Of a stretch of DNA of 64,000 nucleotides, positions 51,531-64,000 are shown one piece after another. The notes below the pieces were generated by a model. The model saw only the letters and a program-made list of their open reading frames with translations, was not told the DNA's origin and did no database searches. Within the stretch, counting starts at the first letter, position 1; every line of letters starts with the position of its first letter. Location of the stretch: NCBI GenBank assembly GCA_963739205.1, contig CAVTZJ010000005.1:851819-915818 (forward strand). The letters run 5' to 3'. The translations under genes and the position numbers were made by a program. The DNA comes from an uncultured Pseudomonadota bacterium. GTDB lineage: Bacteria > Pseudomonadota > Gammaproteobacteria > Burkholderiales > SG8-39.

Positions 51531-51575
51531 TGGCGCGCCCGGCAGGATTTGAACCCACGACCCCCTGGTTCGTAG
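51531..51575 (-). mobile_element. att site: 3' half of tRNA-Arg(ACG)
   Basis: Minus strand reads CTACGAACCAGGGGGTCGTGGGTTCAAATCCTGCCGGGCGCGCCA, i.e. anticodon loop, T-arm, acceptor 3' strand and CCA. There is no D-arm or 5' acceptor strand upstream. Confidence 0.88.
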
Positions 51576-51796: not shown

Positions 51797-54700
51797 TTAG
51801 AAGGGAATAGACAGCTTGACCGTACCACTGTTGGATTTCAGGTGGTCAGAGAAACTCCCAAAGTAACCCACCTGCAGAATTTGCCCTTTGTTGTTCAGCA
51901 CTGTCAGGCCGATGTGGACGTCCGCATAGGTCTTGTCCATTTCGCCTTTGACCGTGAACGGGGCAGCACCCACCGGCGCACCCTGGAAGGTGGCCGTGAT
52001 CTCGGGTGAGGTTCCCGAGAGGAATTGGGTGATGCCGAGCTTCGCGTAGGGCCGCAGCAGCAGCCCGTTCTCGAGGCTCGTCTCGCCACCGATTTCAAGC
52101 GCCGGCGTCAAATTGACGTAGGTCTCGTCGCGCCTCGCGACATTGAGGTTGGCGGCGCCCGCCCCGGTCTCCTGGAATCCGGGGAACCACGCCTGCGTGA
52201 CGCCAAGGTCGATCAGCGGTTTGACATACCAGTTGACCCCTTGCTCGTACGCATGGGCAAGCCGCAAGTGGCCCGAAACGAACTCCACATCCTGATTGCT
52301 TTTCGCCGTCACGCCCGGCCCAGGGAGATTCACATAGCGGGCAGTATCGTAATTGCCGTATCCGGCACTAAGATCGGCGGCAAGGGAAGTCGCCCCGTAT
52401 TCCTTCTTTACGATCGCGCCGATTTGAATCTGATCGCCGGACGTACTGGCGTCTTGCTCGACATCCAAGGTGCTGTACTCGTAGGACAAGCCGAATCCGC
52501 CATGCCAGCTGCCGTCGCCGAAAGCCCGCTGCGCCCCAGTGGACAGGTTGACTGACCGGCGGTCGAAGCCCATGTTCTCGGCCGTCCGCTCCTGGTTGGC
52601 CTCACCGCCCATCAGCCGGAACCAGTCACACTCGCCTTCGCGCACGAATCGATTTGAACCGTCAGGCACACCGCAGCTGTGCAGCGCGTCACTGAACCCG
52701 ATATTCGAGAACAGCGTTCCCGTGGCCGTACCAAGGTAAGGCTCGGGGCTTAAGCGATCGTAGGCGTCGCCAAGGCTGCGCGCATCCGGCAGGTCGAGTA
52801 GTGCAGCAACAATGGGCGCCAGACGTGATGAGCCTCCCGCCGACTGAAAATCAGTAACGTTATGACCGATCGCGCTCTGATTCGCGCTCAGCCCTGCGGG
52901 CGAAAAGTCGATGCTGTAGCCTAGAACCACATCGGTCGGATCAGGAAATAGCAGCTGGTACTGAATAACGGCCGAGGGCCGGGCATCAATGCCGAGACCG
53001 GAATTGGCGACACCTCCGGAAGCGGACAGTATGGTGAGCCGATGAACGCCGGGCATGACATAGCCGACATTCACGTTGTTCGGTTGCACCTTGCCGGCAA
53101 GACCGGCGGTCCCGGAAACGTCAAGCCGGTCTGCCATACCGCTCGCGTGATCCAGATCCACAGCATAGATCCCCGTCACCGTCTGAGTCAGGCTGCCGCT
53201 GACGGAGGTGGTCATGACGGTCCGCGCACCGCCGGGCGACACTACGCCCTCGTTGGTCAGAAGATTTCCGGCGCCGAGGCTCACCCCAGCTCCGGAATTG
53301 AACGTCGCGGCGCGTTCGTTGTGGAACGAGTTGAGGCCGGTGCCGAGATCGACCGAGCCGGTGACCGTGCCGTAGTTGTCGATGGCTTCGTTGCCGGAAT
53401 TGGCGACGATCGCGCGGCCCTGAACGCCCGGTACCGAGGTGATGATGCCGTGGTTGACCAGGCTGTTGGCTGCGCCGCCTGAAAAGGCGACGCCCGCGCC
53501 GGTTCCGCTGCCACCCGAGACGATGCCGTCGTTGACGGCGATGGTGATGTTGCCGTTGCCGCCGCCCCCGCCGCTCTGCGCGTAGATGCCGTCGGCATTC
53601 TTGCCCGAGGCGGTGATGGAGCCGTGGAGCGTGATGTCGACGTTCCCCGCGGTCCCTTGGCCGGCTGCGCTCTGCGCAAACAGGCCGTGGGCGCCATCTC
53701 CCGTCGTCTCGATCGTGCCGGTGTGGTTAACGACGACGTGCCCCGCCGTGCCCGCGCCGCCGACACTGCCGGCGAAGCTGAGGCCGGCTTCGGTGTCGAC
53801 GAAGGTGTTGAAGATCGAATTGACGATCTCGTTGCTGGTCACGCCTTGCGGGTTGTAGAAGCCGGCCAGGCCGCCGCCGCCCGCGACGCTTTGCGCGACC
53901 ACGCCCATGGCGAAATCGCCGGAGGTCCTGATGCGGCCGGTGCTGTTGAGCGTCACGTCGCCGCCGTTGCCGCCCGCACCGCCGCTGCCCTGCAGGGTCA
54001 TCGACAGGTTGGTCAGGCCGGAGATGTCGTCGAGCACCGGGATCTCGGGCACGACGTCCGCGTTAGAGAACTGGAATGTCATGGCGCTGCCGCCGGAACC
54101 GCCGCCGCCGCCCACGCTCTGCGCGACGATGCCGTGCGAGAAGGCCCCGGTCGTCGTCACGTTGCTTTCGTTGGTCACCGTGACGTTGCCGCCGTGGCTG
54201 CCGGTGCCGCCGGTACCGCCAAAGACCATCGTCATGTCGAGGCTCGTGAGCGAGGTCAGCGGCATGAAGTCCATTGGGTCGGCGGTGAGCTCGACCTGGA
54301 TGCTGCGGGCGTCGCCGCCGGTGCCGCCCGAGCCACCGACGCTCTGCGCCATGACGCCCGCGGCGAATTTTCCGTCGGTGCGGATGGTGCCGGTATTGTT
54401 GACCACGACGTCGCCGCCGGTTGCGCCGTTGCCGCCGTTGCCGCCGATCGCGAGATCGAAATTGCCGCTTGGCGACGGAATGAAGTCCTCCGGCGCGGTG
54501 GGCGGAGGCGTGAGCGACAGGGAGAAGTTGGTCGCATTGCCGCCGGCGCCGCCACCGCCGCCGACGCTTTGCGCGAACACGCCGTTGGAGAAGTCGCCCT
54601 GCGTGTGAATCACGCCGCCGTTTCCGACGGTGACCTTGTTGCCGGTGCCGCCTTGGCCGCCCGACCCGCCGACAGCCACCTTGCCGGTGAAGGTGGCGTC

Positions 54701-57700
54701 GTACGAGAGGGAGATGTTCGTCGCATTACCGCCCTTGCCGCCGCTGCCGCCCACGCTTTGCGCGAAGACGCCGTTGGACATGAAATTGGTGGTATCGATC
54801 TCGCCGCCATTGGTGACCGTGACCGTGTTCGCCACGCCGCCGCCACCACCGCGACCGCCGACCGCAACGTTGACCGAAATCGCGGGGATCTGGACGTCTT
54901 CGATCTCGATCGGGAACACGAGCGTGCCGGTCGTGGCGCTGCCGCCCGCGCCGCCGCTGCCGCCGATGCTCTGCGCGAAGACACCGTCGCTGTTCGGCCC
55001 CGTGGCCGCGATGCGCCCCTGGTTGTCGACGCTGACCTGGCCGCCGTTGCCGCCCGAGCCGCCGTTGCCGCCGACCGCCACGGCCACCGCCACCGGCCCC
55101 GCCAGCGAAAGGCTGGTCGCATCGCCGCCCGAGCCGCCGCCGCCGCCGACGCTCTGCGCGAAGACGCCGGCCGAGTTGTTGCCCTGCGTCGCGATCAGGC
55201 CGCTGTTCACGATGTTGACCAGGCTGCCATCGTTGCCGGCGCCGCCGGCGCCGCCGACCGTGGTCGTGACGGATGCCACGCCGATGCTGCCCGCAAACGC
55301 GGAGCCGCCGTTGCCGCCGCCCCCGCCGATGCTTTGCGCGAAGATGCCCGCTGCGCTCTCTCCGCCCGTTGCGATCGTGCCGGAGTTGGTGATGCCTATC
55401 TGACCGGCGGCGCCGCCGCTGCCGCCGGAGCCGCCGAGACTGACGCCGACCGAAGTACCGCCGACGGCCAGGCTGCCGGCGAAGCCGCCGTTGCCCCCGC
55501 CGCCGCCGATGCTTTGCGTGAAGATCCCCGCGGAAAGATCGCCCGTCGTGGCGATCGTCCCCGCGTTGTCGATGCTCACGTTCTTGCCGCTGCCGGCGAC
55601 GTTGCCCTTGCCGCCGACGCTGACGGCCACGCTGAGGCCGGGGCCGCCCGAGCCCGAGAGCGCCATGCCGCCGTTGCCGCCGCCGCCGCCGATGCTCTGG
55701 GCCATGATTCCGTACGACCCGTTGCCGCTGGTGCCGATCGTCGTCGCGCTGTCGGTCTTGACCTCGACGAGGTCGCCGGCGTCGCCGCCGCCACCGCCGT
55801 TGCCGCCCAGGGCGACCGATACGTTGATGGTCGAGCCTCCCGGGGGCGTCCCGGCGACGGCCAGGCCGCCGTTGCCCCCGCCACCGCCGATCGACTGCGC
55901 CTGAATGCCGGGCGAACTGTCGCCGGCTGTTTCGATGTCGCCGCCCTGCGCGGTGACGTGAACCTCGTCGCCCTTTCCACCCAAGCCGCCGGCACCGCCC
56001 ACGGCGACGCTGACCGTCGAAGAAATGGAAACCGCGTCTCCGCCGTTGCCCCCGCCGCCGCCGATCGACTGGGCGAAGATGGCCGTCGAACGGTCGCCGC
56101 CGGTCCGGACCTTGCCGGAATCAAACACCGTGACCACGCCGGAGCCGCCCCCGGAACCGCCCCGGCCGCCAACCGTAAACCAGCCGCCGGCCCCGCCGCC
56201 GTCGCCGCCGCCGCCCCCGATCGATTGCGCGAGGATGCCGAAGGAATCGGAGTTCTGCGTCGTGACCGTGCCGCTGTTGTTGACCGTCACCGCGGCGCCG
56301 TTGGATTCGCCGCCGCCGTTGCCGCCTTCCGCGTAGATCCCGCTCGAACTGCTCCCAGAACCAGCACCGGCACCGACACTGCTCGCGTAGATTCCATGAG
56401 CGTTCCAGCCGGTGGTCAGAATGGTGCCCTGGTTGACGACGAGGACGTCGCCGGCATCGCCGCCGTTTCCTCCGTCGCTGCCGAGTGCAACCGCGGCGCT
56501 CGCATGGCCGCCACTTCCGCCATTGCCGCCCCGGCTCAAGGCGAATACGCCGTCGCCCTTGTCCCCGTGTGTGGTGATATTCGAATTCGCGCCGAGCAAG
56601 ACCGACACCAGTGCGCTGTCGCCGCCGTCGCCGCCTCCTCCCGCAGAGGACACGAGGCCTACGAAACCGCCGCCGTCGCCGCCGGTACCACCCTGGCTGA
56701 TGGCCGTGATCCCGTTTTTCCCTTTGGCATCACCATTCACGATGATGGTTGAGTTGCTGTTTACCGCAACCGAGCCCGCGTTGCCCCCGCGAGAACCGTC
56801 GTCACACCATGTGTAAAGGAACAGGATTGTGTAGCAGTGGCCGTTGCCGCCATTGCCGCCGGTCGAGCTCACGACAATGCCTCCTGCATTGGTAGTGCCG
56901 AAGGGAGCGCCTTGCGACGAAGCACCGGCGTTGTTGTTGACCGTCAGGCTGCCGCTGATGGCGGCTCCGCTATCCGGTGCATTACCCGCCAGGTATTGGG
57001 CGAGTTCCGTGCCGCTGTATGTGACCGCGTCGGGCCCTGTGCCGATCCTGAAAGTCTCAGGATGTTGGTTGGCATCGTACGTTACAACCGTAATATAGCC
57101 GCCGTTGATCAGGTAGGGCGTATTGCCGTCCATCGACACCACGTCGACCGCGGGGGTGTTGGAGTCGTTATCCGTATCCCACTTGATGGTCGTGAGATCG
57201 GCGTCGGGGGCGGCCGCGCCGCTCACGCCGGTACGTGAAAGCTCGATGCCGATCGTGCCCGGATTGACAACCGTCGTGCCAGGCACGCCGTCGCCCACGT
57301 TCACGGTGGTGACGCCGCTGGTATAGCGGACGCCGCCGGGGCCTACGTCGGCACAGTTCGCAGTCGGACTCCCGGAACACGAGGCATTGACCTGCGCTTC
57401 GACCTCGCGCACGCCGCTCGCCGCGTAGGTAAGCGCCGCTGCGCCCAGCGTGGCTCCAAAATCCGCGACGCCGCCGCTCAACGCAAAGATAAGCGCCGCG
57501 GTAAGCGACCCGAGGCGCATCGGGATTGCTCGCAGCCGCTCGCCGACATTCAAGAACATCATGAAGATATTCAGCGTGCTTGGCGGCGCAGTGACGTTGA
57601 TCCCTGCTGATTGGTCGCCTTGGCAATCGCTCCCGACACAGGCGTCGTGGCCTGCGAGGCGAGTGCCCGAAAGAGCAGCGAAGACCGCTAGGACATATGG

Positions 57701-57739
57701 CTTGAGCGCATGCTGCTGAAGGGCAATTGAGCGGAGCAT
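51797..57739 (-). CDS. Large glycine-rich repeat autotransporter (type Va)
   Basis: About 15 GxxAQSxGGGGGxGG repeats, a linker (AYDRLSPEPY) and a C-terminal beta-barrel ending in KLSIPF (terminal Phe). Confidence 0.9.
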   Translation of the reverse strand: MLRSIALQQHALKPYVLAVFAALSGTRLAGHDACVGSDCQGDQSAGINVTAPPSTLNIFMMFLNVGERLRAIPMRLGSLTAALIFALSGGVADFGATLGAAALTYAASGVREVEAQVNASCSGSPTANCADVGPGGVRYTSGVTTVNVGDGVPGTTVVNPGTIGIELSRTGVSGAAAPDADLTTIKWDTDNDSNTPAVDVVSMDGNTPYLINGGYITVVTYDANQHPETFRIGTGPDAVTYSGTELAQYLAGNAPDSGAAISGSLTVNNNAGASSQGAPFGTTNAGGIVVSSTGGNGGNGHCYTILFLYTWCDDGSRGGNAGSVAVNSNSTIIVNGDAKGKNGITAISQGGTGGDGGGFVGLVSSAGGGGDGGDSALVSVLLGANSNITTHGDKGDGVFALSRGGNGGSGGHASAAVALGSDGGNGGDAGDVLVVNQGTILTTGWNAHGIYASSVGAGAGSGSSSSGIYAEGGNGGGESNGAAVTVNNSGTVTTQNSDSFGILAQSIGGGGGDGGGAGGWFTVGGRGGSGGGSGVVTVFDSGKVRTGGDRSTAIFAQSIGGGGGNGGDAVSISSTVSVAVGGAGGLGGKGDEVHVTAQGGDIETAGDSSPGIQAQSIGGGGGNGGLAVAGTPPGGSTINVSVALGGNGGGGGDAGDLVEVKTDSATTIGTSGNGSYGIMAQSIGGGGGNGGMALSGSGGPGLSVAVSVGGKGNVAGSGKNVSIDNAGTIATTGDLSAGIFTQSIGGGGGNGGFAGSLAVGGTSVGVSLGGSGGSGGAAGQIGITNSGTIATGGESAAGIFAQSIGGGGGNGGSAFAGSIGVASVTTTVGGAGGAGNDGSLVNIVNSGLIATQGNNSAGVFAQSVGGGGGSGGDATSLSLAGPVAVAVAVGGNGGSGGNGGQVSVDNQGRIAATGPNSDGVFAQSIGGSGGAGGSATTGTLVFPIEIEDVQIPAISVNVAVGGRGGGGGVANTVTVTNGGEIDTTNFMSNGVFAQSVGGSGGKGGNATNISLSYDATFTGKVAVGGSGGQGGTGNKVTVGNGGVIHTQGDFSNGVFAQSVGGGGGAGGNATNFSLSLTPPPTAPEDFIPSPSGNFDLAIGGNGGNGATGGDVVVNNTGTIRTDGKFAAGVMAQSVGGSGGTGGDARSIQVELTADPMDFMPLTSLTSLDMTMVFGGTGGTGSHGGNVTVTNESNVTTTGAFSHGIVAQSVGGGGGSGGSAMTFQFSNADVVPEIPVLDDISGLTNLSMTLQGSGGAGGNGGDVTLNSTGRIRTSGDFAMGVVAQSVAGGGGLAGFYNPQGVTSNEIVNSIFNTFVDTEAGLSFAGSVGGAGTAGHVVVNHTGTIETTGDGAHGLFAQSAAGQGTAGNVDITLHGSITASGKNADGIYAQSGGGGGNGNITIAVNDGIVSGGSGTGAGVAFSGGAANSLVNHGIITSVPGVQGRAIVANSGNEAIDNYGTVTGSVDLGTGLNSFHNERAATFNSGAGVSLGAGNLLTNEGVVSPGGARTVMTTSVSGSLTQTVTGIYAVDLDHASGMADRLDVSGTAGLAGKVQPNNVNVGYVMPGVHRLTILSASGGVANSGLGIDARPSAVIQYQLLFPDPTDVVLGYSIDFSPAGLSANQSAIGHNVTDFQSAGGSSRLAPIVAALLDLPDARSLGDAYDRLSPEPYLGTATGTLFSNIGFSDALHSCGVPDGSNRFVREGECDWFRLMGGEANQERTAENMGFDRRSVNLSTGAQRAFGDGSWHGGFGLSYEYSTLDVEQDASTSGDQIQIGAIVKKEYGATSLAADLSAGYGNYDTARYVNLPGPGVTAKSNQDVEFVSGHLRLAHAYEQGVNWYVKPLIDLGVTQAWFPGFQETGAGAANLNVARRDETYVNLTPALEIGGETSLENGLLLRPYAKLGITQFLSGTSPEITATFQGAPVGAAPFTVKGEMDKTYADVHIGLTVLNNKGQILQVGYFGSFSDHLKSNSGTVKLSIPF

Positions 57740-58452
57740 GATGAGATCCCCCTATCGGAATCACCGCCCGCGGCACCTCGCAAGGCTATTGAGCCTGCCG
57801 CGCCCCCTATTCGATCGCGCCCATTGCGCGCGAATAGCCGGACGAGATTCTCACCGATGACACTGCAGCGAACTTGCGTGCGTCCGCGAGACGAGCAATC
57901 ACCGCTAGAAGGACTGTCCGTCATAGTAGATTTGTCCTCTTGCAGGCGCTCTTTTTATCGAATAACTGCCGAACTAGGAGGGAAAGCTAACTCATTAGAA
58001 ACTTCACCGTTTGATGCGCATCAAGGCATGTGATGAAAGACCACGAGGTCAGCTAAGCCAAGCCTCGCGGAGTGCTTCTCGTGCTCCCCCCATGCGCCAT
58101 CTGCGGACAAGTTGTCCCACAGGCACGAGCAACCCGCCTCGGCGACAGAGCGTCACACCTAGTTAACGAGGCGCGAGACGATGAGTCAGTCCCCTGGCAA
58201 TGTCGAGCAAGTGGAATCAGCGCCATCCATGCTTAAGTTCGGCCGAGATCAGACCTGAAAACGGAGGCCGGCTAATCGGGAGGCCACGCTACTAGCGTCG
58301 CGCGAGCGGGCCAAGGCGCGTTACCACGGAGCGCGACTGGCAATAGCAGAGAATGCTACGCGAGAGCTTAGTGACTACTTAACCTGGCCACCAATTGCCC
58401 GCAGGGTCGCGACGATACCCGCTTAGCAGTTGCATCTTCGCCGTGGAACTGG

Positions 58453-58480
58453 ATGTCCGCTGTCGACCCGAAGCGGACAT
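58453..58480 (-). repeat. 28-bp 11-6-11 pseudo-palindrome, copy A
   Basis: Minus strand: ATGTCCGCTTC-GGGTCG-ACAGCGGACAT. Confidence 0.75.
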
Positions 58481-58571
58481 TCCCACAAAAGGCAACTCGA
58501 CTGAACAGCTCCATCGGTTCTCAGGTTGCCGGTGTCGTGTACGCTCTATTTATGCGAATAGAATTCATCAT

Positions 58572-59153
58572 ATGAATTCCGCAATTCTTCTGTTGCTTCG
58601 CTATAGGCGGTTGTTGGGCGTCCTGCTGTTTCTGGGTGTGTTGATGGCTGTCTTCGAGGCCTCCGGCCTTAGGGATCACTTCAGCCTTCAGTTCCTGCAG
58701 CATCGGATATCGGAGAACAAGTTCAGCGGAATTTTGATCTTTGTGCTTCTGTTTGCCTTAGGCAACTTCATCCATATCCCGGGCTTGGTCTTTCTTGCGG
58801 CAGCCGTACTGACCTTGGGGAAAACCATGGGCGCTGTGGTCACGTACATTGCGGCGAGCGTCTCATGCGTCGTGACATTCCTGAGCATTCGATACGTGGG
58901 CGGCGATGCGCTGCGGCAGCTAGACAATAGACTTGCCGCCAGAATTTTCAGTCATCTGGATGCACGGCCGATAACAAGCATTTTCATGCTGCGGACCTTG
59001 TTTCAGACTATGCCCGCGCTCAATTACGCTCTTGCAATGTCGGGCCTTAAGTTTCGGCAATATCTGGCCGGCACACTGCTGGGACTTCCCTTGCCCATCG
59101 TCTTGTATTGCCTACTTGTTGGCTATCTGGGCCAAATTCTGAGGACCCAATAG
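58572..59153 (+). CDS. TVP38/TMEM64 (DedA/VTT domain) membrane protein
   Basis: Very hydrophobic, with HIPG, RYVGG, LNYALAMSG and YLAGTLLG; codon use is AT-richer than the core genes. Confidence 0.8.
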   Translation: MNSAILLLLRYRRLLGVLLFLGVLMAVFEASGLRDHFSLQFLQHRISENKFSGILIFVLLFALGNFIHIPGLVFLAAAVLTLGKTMGAVVTYIAASVSCVVTFLSIRYVGGDALRQLDNRLAARIFSHLDARPITSIFMLRTLFQTMPALNYALAMSGLKFRQYLAGTLLGLPLPIVLYCLLVGYLGQILRTQ

Positions 59154-59247
59154 CTGGGCAACAACAGTCAGGACAGGGTCGAGAAAGCTCTCACGGATGA
59201 ACGTCCCCCCGTGGAGAGCTAGCTAAATAGGCGATAAGACTTGGTGC

Positions 59248-59275
59248 GTGACCGCTTCTGGTCGATAGCGGAAAT
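59248..59275 (+). repeat. 28-bp 11-6-11 pseudo-palindrome, copy B
   Basis: GTGACCGCTTC-TGGTCG-ATAGCGGAAAT; 23/28 identical to copy A and inverted relative to it. Confidence 0.7.
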
Positions 59276-59465
59276 TAGAGGGCGGCACGCGCGAAGAACG
59301 CAGCGCGAGTCAGGATCCTGAAAGGGCACAAAAAGAAACTGATTGCAGTTGCGCGCGTACTTTCCCTCAGTCGACTCTTGACCGGATTCGACGCAGGCGG
59401 CTAAATCCTCCGCAGGCTCGGTGACGACGGGGGAAAGAGCCATGTGCTGCGGATTCAGACGTCAA

Positions 59466-60590
59466 ATGCGGTTGCGCCTGGTGGCCGGCGCGGCGCTTCT
59501 TTGGTCGGCATTCGCGGCGGGACAGACCCCGGGAGTCACCGCAACCAGCGTGGTCCTCGGCGAATCCGCCGCCTTCTCCGGGCCGGCCGCACAGCTTGGG
59601 ATCCAGATGCGCGACGGCATGAAGCTGTACTTCGACCAGGTCAACGCGCAGGGCGGCGTATACGGGCGCAAGATCGCGCTGGTGACGCGCGACGATGGCT
59701 ACGAGCCTAACCGGGCCGCCGAGAACACGCACAAGCTGATCGAGAACGACAAGGTGTTTGCGCTCATCGGCTACGTGGGTACGCCGACCAGCCAGGCGGC
59801 CCTGCCGATCTTCACCGAGGCGAAGGTGCCGTTCATCGGAGCGTTCACTGGCGCCGAACTGCTGCGCAAGCCGTTCAACCGCTACATCTTCAATGTGCGG
59901 GCGAGCTATTACGACGAGACCGACCAGATCGTCGAGCAGCTCTTGACGGTGGGCATCAAGCGCTTCGCCGTCTTCTACCAGAACGACGCTTACGGCCAGG
60001 CAGGGCTGACCGGTGTGCAACTTGCGGTGAAGAAGCGCGGCGGGGACATCGTTGCGCTCGGCACGGTCGAGCGCAATACCGTCGACGTCGCCAAGGCGGT
60101 GAAGGAAATCGAGCCGAAGCACCCCGACGCGATCATCATGATCAGCGCCTACAAGTCGATCGCCGCCTTCATCCGGGAAATGAAGAAGCTCGACTACAGG
60201 GGACAGTTCCTGAACGTGTCCTTCGTAGGCAGCACCGCGCTCGCTCACGAGCTGGGCGACGAAGGGCGCGGCGTGGTGATCTCTCAGGTCGTCCCGTTTC
60301 CGTGGGGCGAATCGACGCCGGTCATCGCCGAGTTCAACGCGCTGGCCGCGCGGAACAAGGTCAACGTCAACTTCTCGAGCGTCGAGGGCTACCTGGTCGC
60401 CAAGGTGTTCGTCGAGGGTCTACGCCGCGCCGGCAAGAACCTGAGCCGCGAGAGCCTGATCAGGGGCCTGGAGACGATGTCGGACTTCGATCTCGGCGGC
60501 TTCAACGTAAGCTTCACACCGACCGATCACAACGGGTCGTCCTACGTCGACCTGACGATCATCACCCGCGACGAGAAATTCCTGCATTAG
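59466..60590 (+). CDS. ABC transporter substrate-binding protein (branched-chain amino acid, PBP1 type), orphan
   Basis: Signal peptide, DDGYEP, GYVGTPT, NVRASY and YQNDAYG; no permease genes adjacent. Confidence 0.88.
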   Translation: MRLRLVAGAALLWSAFAAGQTPGVTATSVVLGESAAFSGPAAQLGIQMRDGMKLYFDQVNAQGGVYGRKIALVTRDDGYEPNRAAENTHKLIENDKVFALIGYVGTPTSQAALPIFTEAKVPFIGAFTGAELLRKPFNRYIFNVRASYYDETDQIVEQLLTVGIKRFAVFYQNDAYGQAGLTGVQLAVKKRGGDIVALGTVERNTVDVAKAVKEIEPKHPDAIIMISAYKSIAAFIREMKKLDYRGQFLNVSFVGSTALAHELGDEGRGVVISQVVPFPWGESTPVIAEFNALAARNKVNVNFSSVEGYLVAKVFVEGLRRAGKNLSRESLIRGLETMSDFDLGGFNVSFTPTDHNGSSYVDLTIITRDEKFLH

Positions 60591-60762
60591 GCGCTGGGCC
60601 CCCCGATAGCGGTCATCATGCGAGTCGCATCCTGCGCTGCACGCCCAGCAGCTCATACGGGCCGCGCCGATCGTCAAAGAGTGCAAAGCGCGGCCTGATT
60701 CTTAGCCTTATCGTTGGCTGGCGTGATTGGATGCACGGTACGCAGCCTCAGCGAGTGCGACC

Positions 60763-61095
60763 ATGGACTCACCCGACGTCGAGCTATTCCTTAGCATGGT
60801 AAAGGATCTAGACCTAGAGCTCGACAAGTGCCTATCCGGAGTATCGAAACCTCTCGAGGCGGCCGCTCTCATCCTTGAGACCTGTCAACGGATGCGTGCG
60901 AAGGAACTCACGGGCCCGATCCACTATTTGCTAGGCGCTATCGAGCAACACGCAAGGCGGATCAGCAGCCCGAACAAGCGCCCAGAGACCGATGCGCGGT
61001 TCCTCGGATCTGACACGTATTGGAGCATCCGGCTACGTAAAGATATCCACGCCCTGCGCGGGCAGCTAATGAGCGCGCAAAACGCCGTCAATTAG
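60763..61095 (+). CDS. Hypothetical protein
   Basis: 110-aa helical-looking ORF with no recognised motif. Confidence 0.45.
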   Translation: MDSPDVELFLSMVKDLDLELDKCLSGVSKPLEAAALILETCQRMRAKELTGPIHYLLGAIEQHARRISSPNKRPETDARFLGSDTYWSIRLRKDIHALRGQLMSAQNAVN

Positions 61096-61182
61096 GAGGC
61101 GCGTCGTGGATCAGATTGTTCTGCGGGGATCCGTAACGACCCATGGCGCGCCAGAAAGTCTCATCGGTACTCTCGGGCGCGA

Positions 61183-61611
61183 ATGAAGATCTTCTTGGAC
61201 TTCGACGGCGTGCTTCGCCGCGAGTCGTCGCCGAACGCGAGGTTGGACGCCGATTGCGTTCGCACTTTCGGGTCGGCTGTGCTGTCGCACCCAGACGTGC
61301 CCGTGGTGATTACGTCGACGTGGCGCTTGGTGCAACCGCTTGACGCGCTGCGCTCCCTGTTCCCCACGGAATTGAGGGCGAGAATCGAGGGTGCGACCCC
61401 CGACTTTCCCGAGGTCGAGGGCTATCCCCGTCACGCCGAAATCCAAGCGTATCTCGCAGTGCATGCTGCGCGCGGCACTCGCTGGATTGCGATTGACGAC
61501 GACGCTGAGCAATATCAACGCGGCGCTCCGCTGATCCTGGTTAACGCGGCAACTGGGTTTGACGAGCCGTGCGCGCAGCGGCTGCGCAATTGGCTAGCGT
61601 ACGGGCACTAG
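61183..61611 (+). CDS. HAD domain protein (Swiss Army Knife RNA repair-like, HAD_SAK_2)
   Basis: IFLDFDGVL, VITSTWR, R..EI..YL and WIAIDD. Confidence 0.82.
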   Translation: MKIFLDFDGVLRRESSPNARLDADCVRTFGSAVLSHPDVPVVITSTWRLVQPLDALRSLFPTELRARIEGATPDFPEVEGYPRHAEIQAYLAVHAARGTRWIAIDDDAEQYQRGAPLILVNAATGFDEPCAQRLRNWLAYGH

Positions 61612-61720
61612 ACACGCGCTCCCGGAAATGGCTGCAGACGCGGCTCAGCTAAATTGGGTCAGCGGACAAGTCGACCAATCTGAAGGGCGAGACTAGAGTG
61701 AGTCGAAAATCGGACAATCG

Positions 61721-61876
61721 ATGGCAATCCTCGATCCGCTGAAGTACTGCTTTCATGGCCAGCACTGCATGCCACGCGCTGGCTTCCGGCTCCTGCCAGG
61801 ACTGAAGGCGAAGCGCGCGGTGTGCGCTCAGTGCTACGCCAAGATCATGGCCGATCGCACGCAGAAAAGACGCTGA
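61721..61876 (+). CDS. 51-aa basic Cys/His microprotein, putative zinc-binding
   Basis: Manual translation gives MAILDPLKYCFHGQHCMPRAGFRLLPGLKAKRAVCAQCYAKIMADRTQKRR. It is below the ORF-track cutoff. Confidence 0.5.
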   Translation: MAILDPLKYCFHGQHCMPRAGFRLLPGLKAKRAVCAQCYAKIMADRTQKRR

Positions 61877-61927
61877 GGCCATATTCGGTCCGTTAGTCGC
61901 CCCGCGCCGCGCCGACTACGCAGTCGA

Positions 61928-61955
61928 GTGACTGTTCCTGGCCCATGGCGCACGT
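61928..61955 (+). repeat. 28-bp 11-6-11 element, degenerate copy E
   Basis: GTGACTGTTCC-TGGCCC-ATGGCGCACGT; 19/28 identical to copy B. Confidence 0.45.
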
Positions 61956-62059
61956 TATGAAGTTGTCTGGAAGCCGAGCTTCGAGAGAACGGCCGGCTAG
62001 TGACTATCCAGCGATTCGTTCAGGACTGCCCGTAAGCACCCCACAAGGTAAATCGAAGA

Positions 62060-62151
62060 TGGGTAGCGAAGGGCGTAGGGAGGGGGGTAGGTCGAGGGTA
62101 CGTAAAAGGTAGGGATAAGGGTAGGAAAACGGGTAGGTAACTGGCGTAGGG
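62060..62151 (+). repeat. Phased GGGTAG-like tandem array, ~12-bp period
   Basis: GTA cores at 62063, 62075, 62087, 62098, 62109, 62121, 62133 and 62146. Confidence 0.7.
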
Positions 62152-62312
62152 ATTGCCTGCAGAACCTCGTAAGAAACGCAAATTCCGTACGGTTGCTACT
62201 TGCTGGAGATGATGCGCGAGGACGCCCTACTACGTCGCGACAAGCCGAGGGTTAATGCGTTAGATAGTTAACGTGTCGTCGTCTCCAATTACGCGCGGCG
62301 GGCCAGCAGGCG

Positions 62313-62340
62313 ATGACTGCTAACGGCCAATAGCGGACAT
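62313..62340 (+). repeat. 28-bp 11-6-11 pseudo-palindrome, copy C
   Basis: ATGACTGCTAA-CGGCCA-ATAGCGGACAT; 20/28 identical to copy A. Confidence 0.65.
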
Positions 62341-62379
62341 CGACTAACGCCGGAGCTTGGCCAAGCGCGAGCCCTTCCA

Positions 62380-63207
62380 TCACTTCGGAGCGAGGTCGCC
62401 GTACCAGTAGGCAGCTGTGACTCCGCCGTCCATTAGGAAGTCGCTACCAGTGATGAACGCGCCGTCCGGCCCCATCAGAAGGGCCCCAACGGCTCCGACC
62501 TCATCCGGAGTGCCGACGCGCCCGGCCGCGGACAGGTTGATCATGCGCCGGTATCCTTCACCCCGCGGACCGGTCAGCTCATCCTTAGCGAGAGGCGTGG
62601 AGATTATTCCGGGGCTAATTGTGTTGATCCGCGCCCCCCGTTTGCCCCACCGCACCGCCTCGGCCATCACCCGCAACGAGTTCCGGCGCTTCGAGAGCTG
62701 GTAGGCGTGGAGCGGGTCCGTCACTCGGTCGAGCTGGAGCATCGGAAGAGCGAGCAACTCGTCGGCGGGCGTAGTCGCCAGCGCCTTGTTTTGTTCTGGC
62801 GTCAGCGCGGGGAGACGGTGCCCCGATTGCGACGCGATGACGACGCCCGCTCCGCCGCGCGCAATGACGTTGCCGAATTCCTCCAGCACGAGCGCGGTAC
62901 CATACAGATCGACCTTTAGGATTGTGGCCGGCGATGCCTGCGTAGGCGATACACCGGCGGCATGGATAAGGCCACTTATGGTGCCGGTCGCCTTAGCCAC
63001 TTCGACAAGCGCGTGGACTGCCTTGCGCGAGGACACGTCAACGATAGCAGTGGTCACGTCGAACCCGGCGTCGCTGAGAACGTTCGCGGCCACTTCGACG
63101 TTTTCGCGGCGCAGATCAGCTAGCAGGACATGTTTGCCTACACTGACCCGCCGCGCGATGGCCTGACCGATCGACCCCGCACCGATGACGACGATAACAT
63201 TAGTCAC
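62380..63207 (-). CDS. SDR family oxidoreductase
   Basis: VIGAGSIG, HAAGVSP, YQLSK, INTISPG and MDGG. Confidence 0.88.
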   Translation of the reverse strand: MTNVIVVIGAGSIGQAIARRVSVGKHVLLADLRRENVEVAANVLSDAGFDVTTAIVDVSSRKAVHALVEVAKATGTISGLIHAAGVSPTQASPATILKVDLYGTALVLEEFGNVIARGGAGVVIASQSGHRLPALTPEQNKALATTPADELLALPMLQLDRVTDPLHAYQLSKRRNSLRVMAEAVRWGKRGARINTISPGIISTPLAKDELTGPRGEGYRRMINLSAAGRVGTPDEVGAVGALLMGPDGAFITGSDFLMDGGVTAAYWYGDLAPK

Positions 63208-63326
63208 TGAGATCTCCTTTCACGTGGTCGAACGCTTGAGTCTCGCGACCGATTCGTGCTGACGTTAAAGGAAGGGCCTACCCAGCAATATTAGTCCGCA
63301 CGGGCTGTCAGGTCCGGTGCAGTCGA

Positions 63327-63346
63327 ATGTCCGCTTTGGGTAGCGG
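63327..63346 (+). repeat. Half/degenerate copy D of the 28-bp element
   Basis: ATGTCCGCTTT-GGGT matches the left arm and core of copy A at 14/15; the right arm is truncated (AGCGG). Confidence 0.55.
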
Positions 63347-63543
63347 GTTCGTTGACGGATGGCCAATTTTCGACCCGATATGGGCGCTAAGACCAGCTAG
63401 AAGCGTCGCCAGGCATTAGCCAGTACGATAGGCGTGAACGCGGCCTGCTTCTTTCTGATAGAGATCACGCGCCAGGCCGGGCGTCCCGGATCTGGCATTT
63501 TTGATTCAATCGTTGTGTTCATGACAACCTAACGGGATCTCCC

Positions 63544-63888
63544 ATGAATGCCGATGCACCTGCGTCCAGTCGTAAGCCTCAGATCGACGCTTTGCTTCTC
63601 AAGCTCCCGGGCGTCAGCACAAAAAAAATCAACGGCCTTGACGCCTACTTTGTCAGCGACAAGATGTTCGCCTGCATTAGCGGCCACGGCGTGGGGCTTC
63701 GCCTGCCTGTCGCCACCACGACCGAACTGCAATTCTCAAGGGACAACGTCGTCCCGTTTCAGCCCGGCGGTATCGCGAGTTCGAGGGAATGGATACAGAT
63801 CAACCGTGCCGAGGCGGCCGATTACGAGAAGGATCTCCCGCTATTTCAGGCGTCGCTCGAGTTTGTGAAAGCCGCCAGGACCCGCTAG
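63544..63888 (+). CDS. TfoX/YjbR-like small protein
   Basis: AYFVSDKMFACI...GLRLP...FQPGG...REWIQI pattern. Confidence 0.6.
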   Translation: MNADAPASSRKPQIDALLLKLPGVSTKKINGLDAYFVSDKMFACISGHGVGLRLPVATTTELQFSRDNVVPFQPGGIASSREWIQINRAEAADYEKDLPLFQASLEFVKAARTR

Positions 63889-64000
63889 GTCGACACTGTG
63901 GGGAACAATAAGCGGCGTAAGACATATCAGCAATCACCCAGACTCCGCTGTGGTGAGTCTCGTTCTTGGTGTCACCTAGACCCTCTGGCAAAGATAGGAC

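Follow-up and report, generated by a model that had tools for sequence, protein, structure and literature searches.

We analyzed a 64,000-nucleotide stretch of DNA from an uncultured member of the Pseudomonadota (positions 851819-915818 of contig C5, hereafter the window; the source genome, G000, comprises 3.9 Mb in 6 contigs at 68% G+C), in which a genomic island carries related 28-bp intergenic elements, each made of two 11-bp arms in imperfect inverted repeat around a 6-bp centre. These elements belong to a conserved family of sites that lie shortly past stop codons and form co-oriented arrays; homology between genomes breaks in or at the sites, and the same slot between two sites holds different cargo in different genomes. 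That the elements are the core sites of a trans-acting cassette recombination system, to be placed beside integrons and dif modules, appeared to us about an even chance. From the pattern we infer the action of a recombinase, the position of its putative cut, and a possible meaning of the two recurrent centres.

Identification of the site family

The original prediction, made from the letters of the window alone, had placed five related elements in the island, and all five were recovered where it had placed them. Site A (58453-58480, + strand, ATGTCCGCTGT-CGACCC-GAAGCGGACAT, 45.5 bits) lies 92 nt upstream of the start of a VTT-domain gene, and site B (59248-59275, + strand, GTGACCGCTTC-TGGTCG-ATAGCGGAAAT, 39.7 bits) lies 95 nt past the stop of that gene. 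Site E (61928-61955, + strand, GTGACTGTTCC-TGGCCC-ATGGCGCACGT, 31.3 bits) is diverged, and site C (62313-62340, - strand, ATGTCCGCTAT-TGGCCG-TTAGCAGTCAT), matched by the model R1 described below, lies 40 nt past the stop of a short-chain dehydrogenase (SDR) gene. Site D (63327-63354, - strand) reads ATGTCCGCTTT-GGGT and then AGCGGGTTCG with deletions; it had been taken for a half site, and judged by eye it is instead a full site decayed through small deletions, falling under the R1 threshold. Re-reading of the sequence also bore out the shared GCAGTCGA upstream of both D and E. In addition, an arm search revealed a half-site that the prediction had missed, designated N (60600-60616, + strand), which consists of the centre remnant CCCCCG and the right arm ATAGCGGTCAT (60606-60616) directly 3' of a binding-protein gene, and in whose place a full site stands in the metagenome run X2.

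The recurrence of these elements was well above the chance level. The exact word of A occurred once in the sequence and in none of 100 shuffles, and a degenerate 28-mer with at most 2 mismatches matched only A, B, E, and C; these gave 6 matches, as two of the sites matched on both strands, where chance would give 0.14. The same search had no match before 58453, in line with the claim that the first 51 kb of the window are free of elements. The whole genome was then scanned with a position matrix and subsequently with R1, a covariance model built from 10 copies, which returned 13 matches at E<0.01 on 10 places over the 3.9 Mb, the next best match having E=0.11. These 10 strong copies comprise A, B, E, C, F, and G in the tRNA-Arg island, where F (C5:916131) and G (C5:917860) are situated shortly beyond the end of the window; the remaining four, H, I, J, and K, are on contig C2. 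The family was concluded to be real and low-copy in G000, with copies that are not distributed evenly and are found outside the island as well. Scanning of the genome and its relatives thus upheld the clustering, as opposed to an even spread, that had been anticipated from the window; the idea that all copies lie inside the island held for the six strong copies there and failed for the four on contig C2.

Site architecture and orientation

The 28-bp core with its 11-6-11 arrangement held in ungapped alignments of 10, 49, and 150 sites, and the arms reach about 14 bases (CGAAT...ATTCG). The family site can be written ATGWCCGCTyy-[CGACCC or TGGCCG]-AwAGCGGWCAT, or about 34 bp with its flanks, and the consensus of 49 sites from 9 genomes was GCGAATGWCCGCTyy-KGGYCG-AwAGCGGWCATTCr. 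Two centres dominated: TGGCCG was found in 22 and GGGTCG in 19 of these 49 sites, the other 8 being different. The same two prevailed in G101, a 2.8-Mb gammaproteobacterial chromosome with at least 150 R1 matches, where a set of 150 sites in 16 regions (289 kb) had CGACCC/GGGTCG in 76 cases, TGGCCG/CGGCCA in 52, and other centres in 22. As the original prediction had maintained, the elements are neither dif nor attC: the real dif of the source genome is ATGTGCGCATA-TGTGTA-TTATGTCAAAT at C5:479518, on the peak of the cumulative GC skew, and its own integron has ordinary YCTAAC...GTTAGGY sites, unlike the elements.

The placement of the sites relative to genes was most clearly seen in G101, where 146 of the 150 sites were intergenic at a median of 38 nt past a stop codon, and 83 of the 122 typed sites (68%) had one of the readings CGACCC and TGGCCG on the coding strand of the gene upstream of them. 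In one stretch of this chromosome (L383), for example, GFA, RRM, DUF1330, and CBS genes are each followed by a site 11-30 nt past the stop. If CGACCC and TGGCCG are counted as one orientation, neighbouring sites were co-oriented in 107 of 119 pairs in G101 and in 27 of 30 pairs in the source lineage (the latter with two sites typed by hand, the decayed D included, and B counted as T type), the orientation being readable from the centre only and, in G101, also from arm position 4/25. Because neighbours on one strand read CGACCC or TGGCCG, the arrays are direct repeats running with the genes. In the window, this gives A, B, N, and E the direction of the + strand genes, and C and D that of the SDR gene on the - strand. 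The inverted orientation earlier assigned to A and B had rested solely on the likeness of their centres and was abandoned, the array statistics making CGACCC and TGGCCG on one strand co-oriented. Inverted, alternating GGGTCG/TGGCCG pairs were also considered as the exchange pair and discarded, since the co-orientation and near-random mixing of the centres in G101 ruled out strict alternation. The modules between sites span 0.1-4 kb; gene direction within them, called by the longest open reading frame (ORF), was as expected in 9 of 13, a test that is too crude at 68% G+C.

The sites could be recognised either as hairpins or as double-stranded DNA. The calculated folding energies were -11.9 kcal/mol for A, -10.9 for I, -5.0 for B, and -1.5 for E, the last having no hairpin. 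In a set of 102 distinct sites from G101, covariation was absent at all 11 mirrored positions, G-T pairs (55) were counted against C-A pairs (48), and position 4/25 placed A opposite A in 63 sites, a feature confined to G101 and absent from the source lineage and the viral set. The 10-site alignment was also without covariation; in the source lineage, one of 14 mirrored positions co-varied weakly (31/48 against 22.6 expected, p=0.007). Because no mirrored position co-varies in G101 and only one does, weakly, in the source lineage, a double-stranded protein site seems likelier than a hairpin, with some doubt left for the source lineage. An RNA reading was rejected, because a search of 57500-64000 against Rfam gave nothing at E<=1 and the 10-site alignment showed no covariation.

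Homology breakpoints at the sites

The original prediction had proposed to ask whether homology breaks at the elements. Comparison with relatives and with assembled contigs of the metagenome runs X1-X4 revealed that it does: breaks fall within A, B, C, H, I, J, or N (60603), or at their edges. One of these places is the slot between H and I on contig C2. In the relative G004, both flanks, the outer arm of H, and the centre and outer arm of I are kept, and the inner arms together with about 800 bp of cargo differ; in G012, a scar fuses the left arm of H with remnants of the right arm of I; G011 is unlike the source genome from I leftwards; and G005 lacks the whole 1.86 kb. At J, G011 is alike on the left through the site and different after it, and the corresponding intergenic region of G001 contains a partial site.

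Further breakpoints within the window were given by metagenome contigs. At site A, contig likeness begins at 58457, and at site B it breaks at 59256 (X3) or 59276 (X1). In X3, and with a short side in X4, the segment 58457-59256, which is the VTT cassette, is joined in inverted orientation to 63551-63998. The X1 contigs diverge at 59276 and 60603, and X2 has a full T-type site, CGAATGTCCGCTCT-TGG|CCG-ATAGCGGTCAT, at the place of half-site N, where the switch occurs at TGG|CCG and likeness runs from 60603. At 62326, the centre of C, near-identical contigs of X2, X3, and X4 (1-5 differences in 346-660 bases) diverge. Among the loose ends listed, 4 of 18 distinct places were within a site (49 more loose ends were unlisted), where about 1 was expected. 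Furthermore, in 12 phage-like loci the stop of a umuC-like gene is immediately followed by the site, beyond which 9 unrelated right flanks occur.

Distribution of the sites

The original prediction had pictured a system local to the island; the same family proved to be pan-proteobacterial. Among 101 relatives searched with R1 at E<=0.001, sites were present in 32 (11 of 16 genomes of the same genus and 23 of 60 of the same family), often clustered 1-4 kb apart. Tallies over relatives include the unpublished genomes G013 and/or G085, and no claim depends on those two alone. A 24-letter pattern of the site matched 108 stretches of viral contigs, and R1 confirmed 95 sites in 73 of the 80 loci examined, which range from 45 to 68% G+C; the pattern also matched at least 120 stretches in named genomes, among them Alpha-, Beta-, and Gammaproteobacteria. 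Among the matches listed, the named carriers included Pseudomonas, Stenotrophomonas, Lysobacter, Pseudoxanthomonas, Sphingomonas, Brevundimonas, Bosea, Ramlibacter, and Nitrospirales, and in a Lysobacter soli record 4 matches to the pattern lie in a span of about 2 kb. A search of 8.4 million articles and preprints for the letters of the site gave no match.

Several of the surroundings deserve description. Site K lies inside the second cassette of the G000 integron, 8 nt before a lipoprotein ORF, with a decayed partner at the other end of that ORF. The integron itself (C2:458000-467686) comprises intI (TIGR02249, 491 bits), at least 4 ordinary attC-like sites, and low-G+C cassettes, and its array holds an insertion of an IS481-family transposase with 42-nt inverted repeats. 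In P2-like prophage contigs (loci L294, L301, L275, L295, L309, L317, L331, L332, L312, L297, L274, and L261), a umuD/umuC-like pair is directly followed by a site, often with a second partial site next to it, and a Dam methylase and an SRAP peptidase are encoded nearby. The roughly 290 bases left of J (C2:254536-254829) recur at no fewer than 4 other places in G000 and also in G007, G011, and G015; this repeat is probably the end of a paralogous gene family.

Array of putative FtsK-guiding words near site C

In the source genome, GGGNAGGG is skewed 49:9 to the left of dif and 7:43 to the right of it, and because this skew flips at dif, the word behaves as an FtsK-guiding word. An array of 8 near-GGGNAGGG words with a 12-nt period (62061-62151, + strand, found by word scan) lies within a non-coding cassette (61993-62312), which is 74% alike in G011 and there too ends at a site. 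Each word is one or two letters off GGGNAGGG, and the array is the sole place in the genome with at least 4 such words within 120 nt. The words point at C, 165 nt away, on the strand that is disfavoured on that side of dif. The array is kept in G011, with one perfect GGGTAGGG. One low-depth joint of opposite strands (depth 4.1) in X1 falls inside the 62061-62263 array. Perfect copies of GGGNAGGG were not enriched near other sites, the relatives having 8 where 6.1 were expected and the viral loci 23 where 18.4 were expected.

Proposed mechanism and alternative explanations

In the mechanism that we propose for cassette recombination, a recombinase encoded elsewhere would bind both arms, cut at the 6-bp centre, and exchange DNA between two copies. 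The outcome would be excision, insertion, or swapping of cassettes, similar to what happens in integron arrays or the dif modules of Acinetobacter, and the two centres may be compatibility classes.

Several observations weigh against this proposal. ORF clusters around the sites (24 loci of 9 relatives' genomes, with ORFs at <=5 kb, and 73 viral loci) comprised flanking core, phage, and umuDC-like genes without a recurrent recombinase, only fragments of the island integrase being met near the sites of the relatives, and a blunt test, tblastn with four queries, detected a tyrosine recombinase in only 4 of the 73 viral loci. Crossover regions normally drift; here just two centres are kept across bacterial classes, which is unusual for a crossover region and suggests that the centre itself is recognised. 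The alternation of the two centres seen in the source lineage gives way to near-random mixing in G101. Several breakpoints fall at the edge of a site and not at its centre (59276 and the right edge of J), many other loose ends lie inside the conserved binding-protein gene, away from sites, and no circular or inverted product appeared in the assembled contigs, which cannot show rare forms. The weakly co-varying position of the source lineage counts in the same direction, and more than 100 copies in one genome, placed just past stop codons, would also fit a repeat of the repetitive extragenic palindromic (REP) type.

It is indeed possible, though we hold it unlikely, that the family is such a REP-like interspersed palindrome with a job other than recombination, such as shielding of mRNA 3' ends or binding of a nucleoid protein, and that exchange is incidental, via short homologies or fragile points. 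The copy number of G101 (at least 100, in clusters, where G000 has 10), intergenic position past stops with a 68% bias to the gene sense, the folding of the strong copies A and I, and the single weakly co-varying position agree with that explanation. The 102 distinct G101 sites speak against it, having no co-varying mirrored position among the 11, G-T pairs about as frequent as C-A pairs, and a conserved A that faces another A, as do the lack of an Rfam match and, by eye, of a T run after the sites. The copies moreover cluster among small accessory genes and are not evenly spread, and the arms have a mean identity of about 76%; arms of 11 bases at such identity are too short for RecA-driven exchange. 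The transposase that accompanies REP elements, the REP-associated tyrosine transposase (RAYT), was rejected as partner, since the one PF01797 gene of G000 is flanked by other palindromes (GGGGACAGACCC-type) and G101, with no PF01797 match, is without a Y1 transposase. It is quite improbable that at each site the terminal inverted repeats of two small non-autonomous transposable modules abut, such modules inserting next to ends already present and the centre being the preferred target. Arms facing each other as inverted repeats across a short spacer, modules of 0.1-4 kb, and tandem site doublets in phage-like loci would be compatible with such ends. However, full sites often stand alone (J in G000 and those of L103, L105, and L115), no target-site duplication was seen by eye at A/B or H/I, no transposase recurs near the sites, and at the H/I slot it is the outer arms that stay and the inner arms that change with the cargo.

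As for the enzyme, five tyrosine-recombinase matches were found in G000, namely XerD, XerC, the integron integrase, the island integrase, and a domain fused to a polysaccharide chain-length protein; a serine recombinase was not found there. The original prediction had ascribed the sites to a tyrosine recombinase, perhaps the island integrase; the part of it that stood is that the elements delimit gene modules, and the part that fell is the choice of this enzyme. The island integrase stands beside tRNA-Arg and, with the 45-base att repeat at 51531-51575, has its own attachment site. An intact copy was found in G000 only, this query had no match in the site-rich relatives G015, G066, G042, G012, G011, and G019, and a site scan of 80 wider-family island-integrase loci (1.1 Mb) gave 2 weak matches. 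The integron integrase was discarded as well, with 2 site matches in 80 intI loci (923 kb) and a presence in 23 of 32 site-bearing against 38 of 69 site-free genomes; the 9 of 32 site-bearing genomes without a match to it include G019, G001, G004, G009, and G056. Accordingly, despite the presence of an integron integrase in G000, the position of K inside its second cassette, and the fragments of island integrase near site clusters in G010 and G007, we regard it as very improbable that the elements are att sites of the latter or short attC-like sites of the former, which has ordinary sites of its own that do not resemble the elements. The host XerC/XerD pair, activated by FtsK, is the only named candidate with any support, and would make the sites true relatives of the Acinetobacter dif modules; we nevertheless consider it unlikely. 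The 11-6-11 geometry is that of Xer sites, the XerC arm of the G000 dif scores 5.2 bits on the site-arm profile (top 0.13% of genome 11-mers), and G019 has sites yet only 3 PF00589 matches in all, XerC, XerD, and one weak further match. The absence of a serine recombinase in G000, the flip of the GGGNAGGG skew at dif, and the aim of the only dense near-copy array at C point the same way. On the other hand, the XerD arm scores -9.3 bits on the same profile, the ATAA-centre-TTAT motif is absent (the columns by the centre read CTTy and AwAG), and perfect GGGNAGGG words are not enriched at other sites. In addition, the dif of G101 has a different XerC arm and its sites have the same arms, and therefore the likeness between the two does not co-vary.

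Island organization and neighbouring genes

The island extends from a 45-nt direct repeat of the tRNA-Arg 3' part (51531-51575, detected as a sequence repeat) to tRNA-Arg itself at C5:923107-923183, outside the window, the integrase and the tRNA together occupying C5:921862-923183. The cassette between A and B carries a single gene for a VTT-domain membrane protein (58573-59153, + strand, with the ATG start taken at 58573; PF09335, 52.9 bits). It is followed by a segment with a periplasmic binding-protein gene (59421-60590, + strand; PF13458, 227.6 bits), whose unit is 59276-60602 and of which the gene alone is common to relatives, at 70-77% identity. The next cassette (60727-61876, + strand) contains a hypothetical ORF, an HAD_SAK_2 protein (61183-61611; PF18143, 90.4 bits), and a 51-aa ORF (61721-61876); in G007 this group is found at 75-77% identity, and the likeness stops at 61912, 16 nt 5' of E. 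Beyond the non-coding cassette and site C, the SDR gene occupies 62380-63207 on the - strand (PF13561, 104.3 bits).

Other parts of the island and the genome were noted in passing. At its left end, the island has an ORF of 1980 aa (51797-57739, - strand) without a Pfam or NCBIfam match. The F...G module is flanked by a 64-nt direct repeat, 81% alike, at C5:916042 and C5:917943, and the roughly 95 nt upstream of G are also found upstream of I on contig C2 and partly at C2:457257. Between the last site and the island integrase, a STAND/AAA ATPase gene is followed by a gene for a trypsin-like protease with TPR repeats (C5:918136-920994), a pair that looks defence-like. On contig C4, a RAYT-like Y1 transposase gene (C4:1001370-1002122) has its own palindromes, AAAATGGGGACAGACCC...GGGTCTGTCCCCATTTT, which form a different repeat family. 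On contig C3, a 678-aa ORF (C3:2524-4560) combines a polysaccharide chain-length-determinant region with a C-terminal tyrosine-recombinase-like domain within a PEP-CTERM/exosortase cluster; the weak PF00589 match in G019 may be similar to it.

Comparison with known cassette systems

Integrons and the dif modules of Acinetobacter are the known ways of filing single genes behind short recombination sites. Should cassette recombination at the present sites be borne out, they would constitute a third site family with the same filing logic and a general, overlooked route of gene exchange without a dedicated integrase, with hosts from Pseudomonas, Lysobacter, and Sphingomonas to uncultured soil and sediment Burkholderiales and phage-like contigs. 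Mobile cassettes in metagenomes could then also be located by a simple sequence tag. In its widest form, which we put forward tentatively as a possibility less probable than its contrary, the idea is that of an integrase-less, pan-proteobacterial cassette system, in which one site with two centres would be served by a conserved host enzyme or a widely shared one, would form integron-like arrays in chromosomes, islands, integron cassettes, and prophages, and would perhaps recruit the FtsK motor via the guiding-word array. If the family is instead REP-like, its value would be smaller, that of a new and widely shared repeat family marking hot spots of genome change.

REP sequences and bacterial interspersed mosaic elements (BIMEs) with their RAYTs are short imperfect palindromes after genes, clustered and with sequence subtypes. 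The present family resembles them in its palindromes past genes, its clusters and subtypes, and its 100 or more copies in some genomes; it differs in that no partner RAYT was found, G000 has 10 copies, the sites are concentrated among accessory cassettes, and the stem is not conserved. The attC sites of integrons have the outer R''/R' boxes RYYYAAC...GTTRRRY and are about 55-140 bp long. Likeness to integrons is seen in the arrays of up to dozens of small, mostly single genes, each followed by a co-oriented site shortly past its stop, and in cargo of the chromosomal-integron type. In contrast to attC, the site is about half the shortest attC length, has no R boxes and no adjacent intI, and lacks a sign of a folded strand in G101, with one weakly co-varying position in the source lineage.

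The closest parallel is offered by the dif (pdif/xrs) modules of Acinetobacter Rep_3 plasmids. These are described as small accessory-gene modules bounded by 28-bp 11-6-11 sites and recombined by XerC/XerD; different modules can occupy one and the same slot, the 6-bp centre is believed to determine which sites pair, and the modules contain no recombinase gene (PMC13141974, PMC11705084). An ATAA-centre-TTAT motif is said there to determine Xer binding and cutting (PMC11705084), and neighbouring sites are described as alternating in orientation, giving C and D modules (PMC13141974). As far as these descriptions go, the two families share the 11-6-11 geometry, the bounding of modules, the slot with varying cargo, the notion of a centre that governs pairing, and the lack of a recombinase within the modules. 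They differ in that the family described here is without an XerD-type arm and without the ATAA/TTAT inner motif, has two centres only, and forms co-oriented arrays, as against alternating C/D and D/C sites. Finally, the present sites are chromosomal, being found in islands, prophage-like contigs, and an integron cassette, and extend over several proteobacterial classes, whereas the dif modules are described from the plasmids of one genus.

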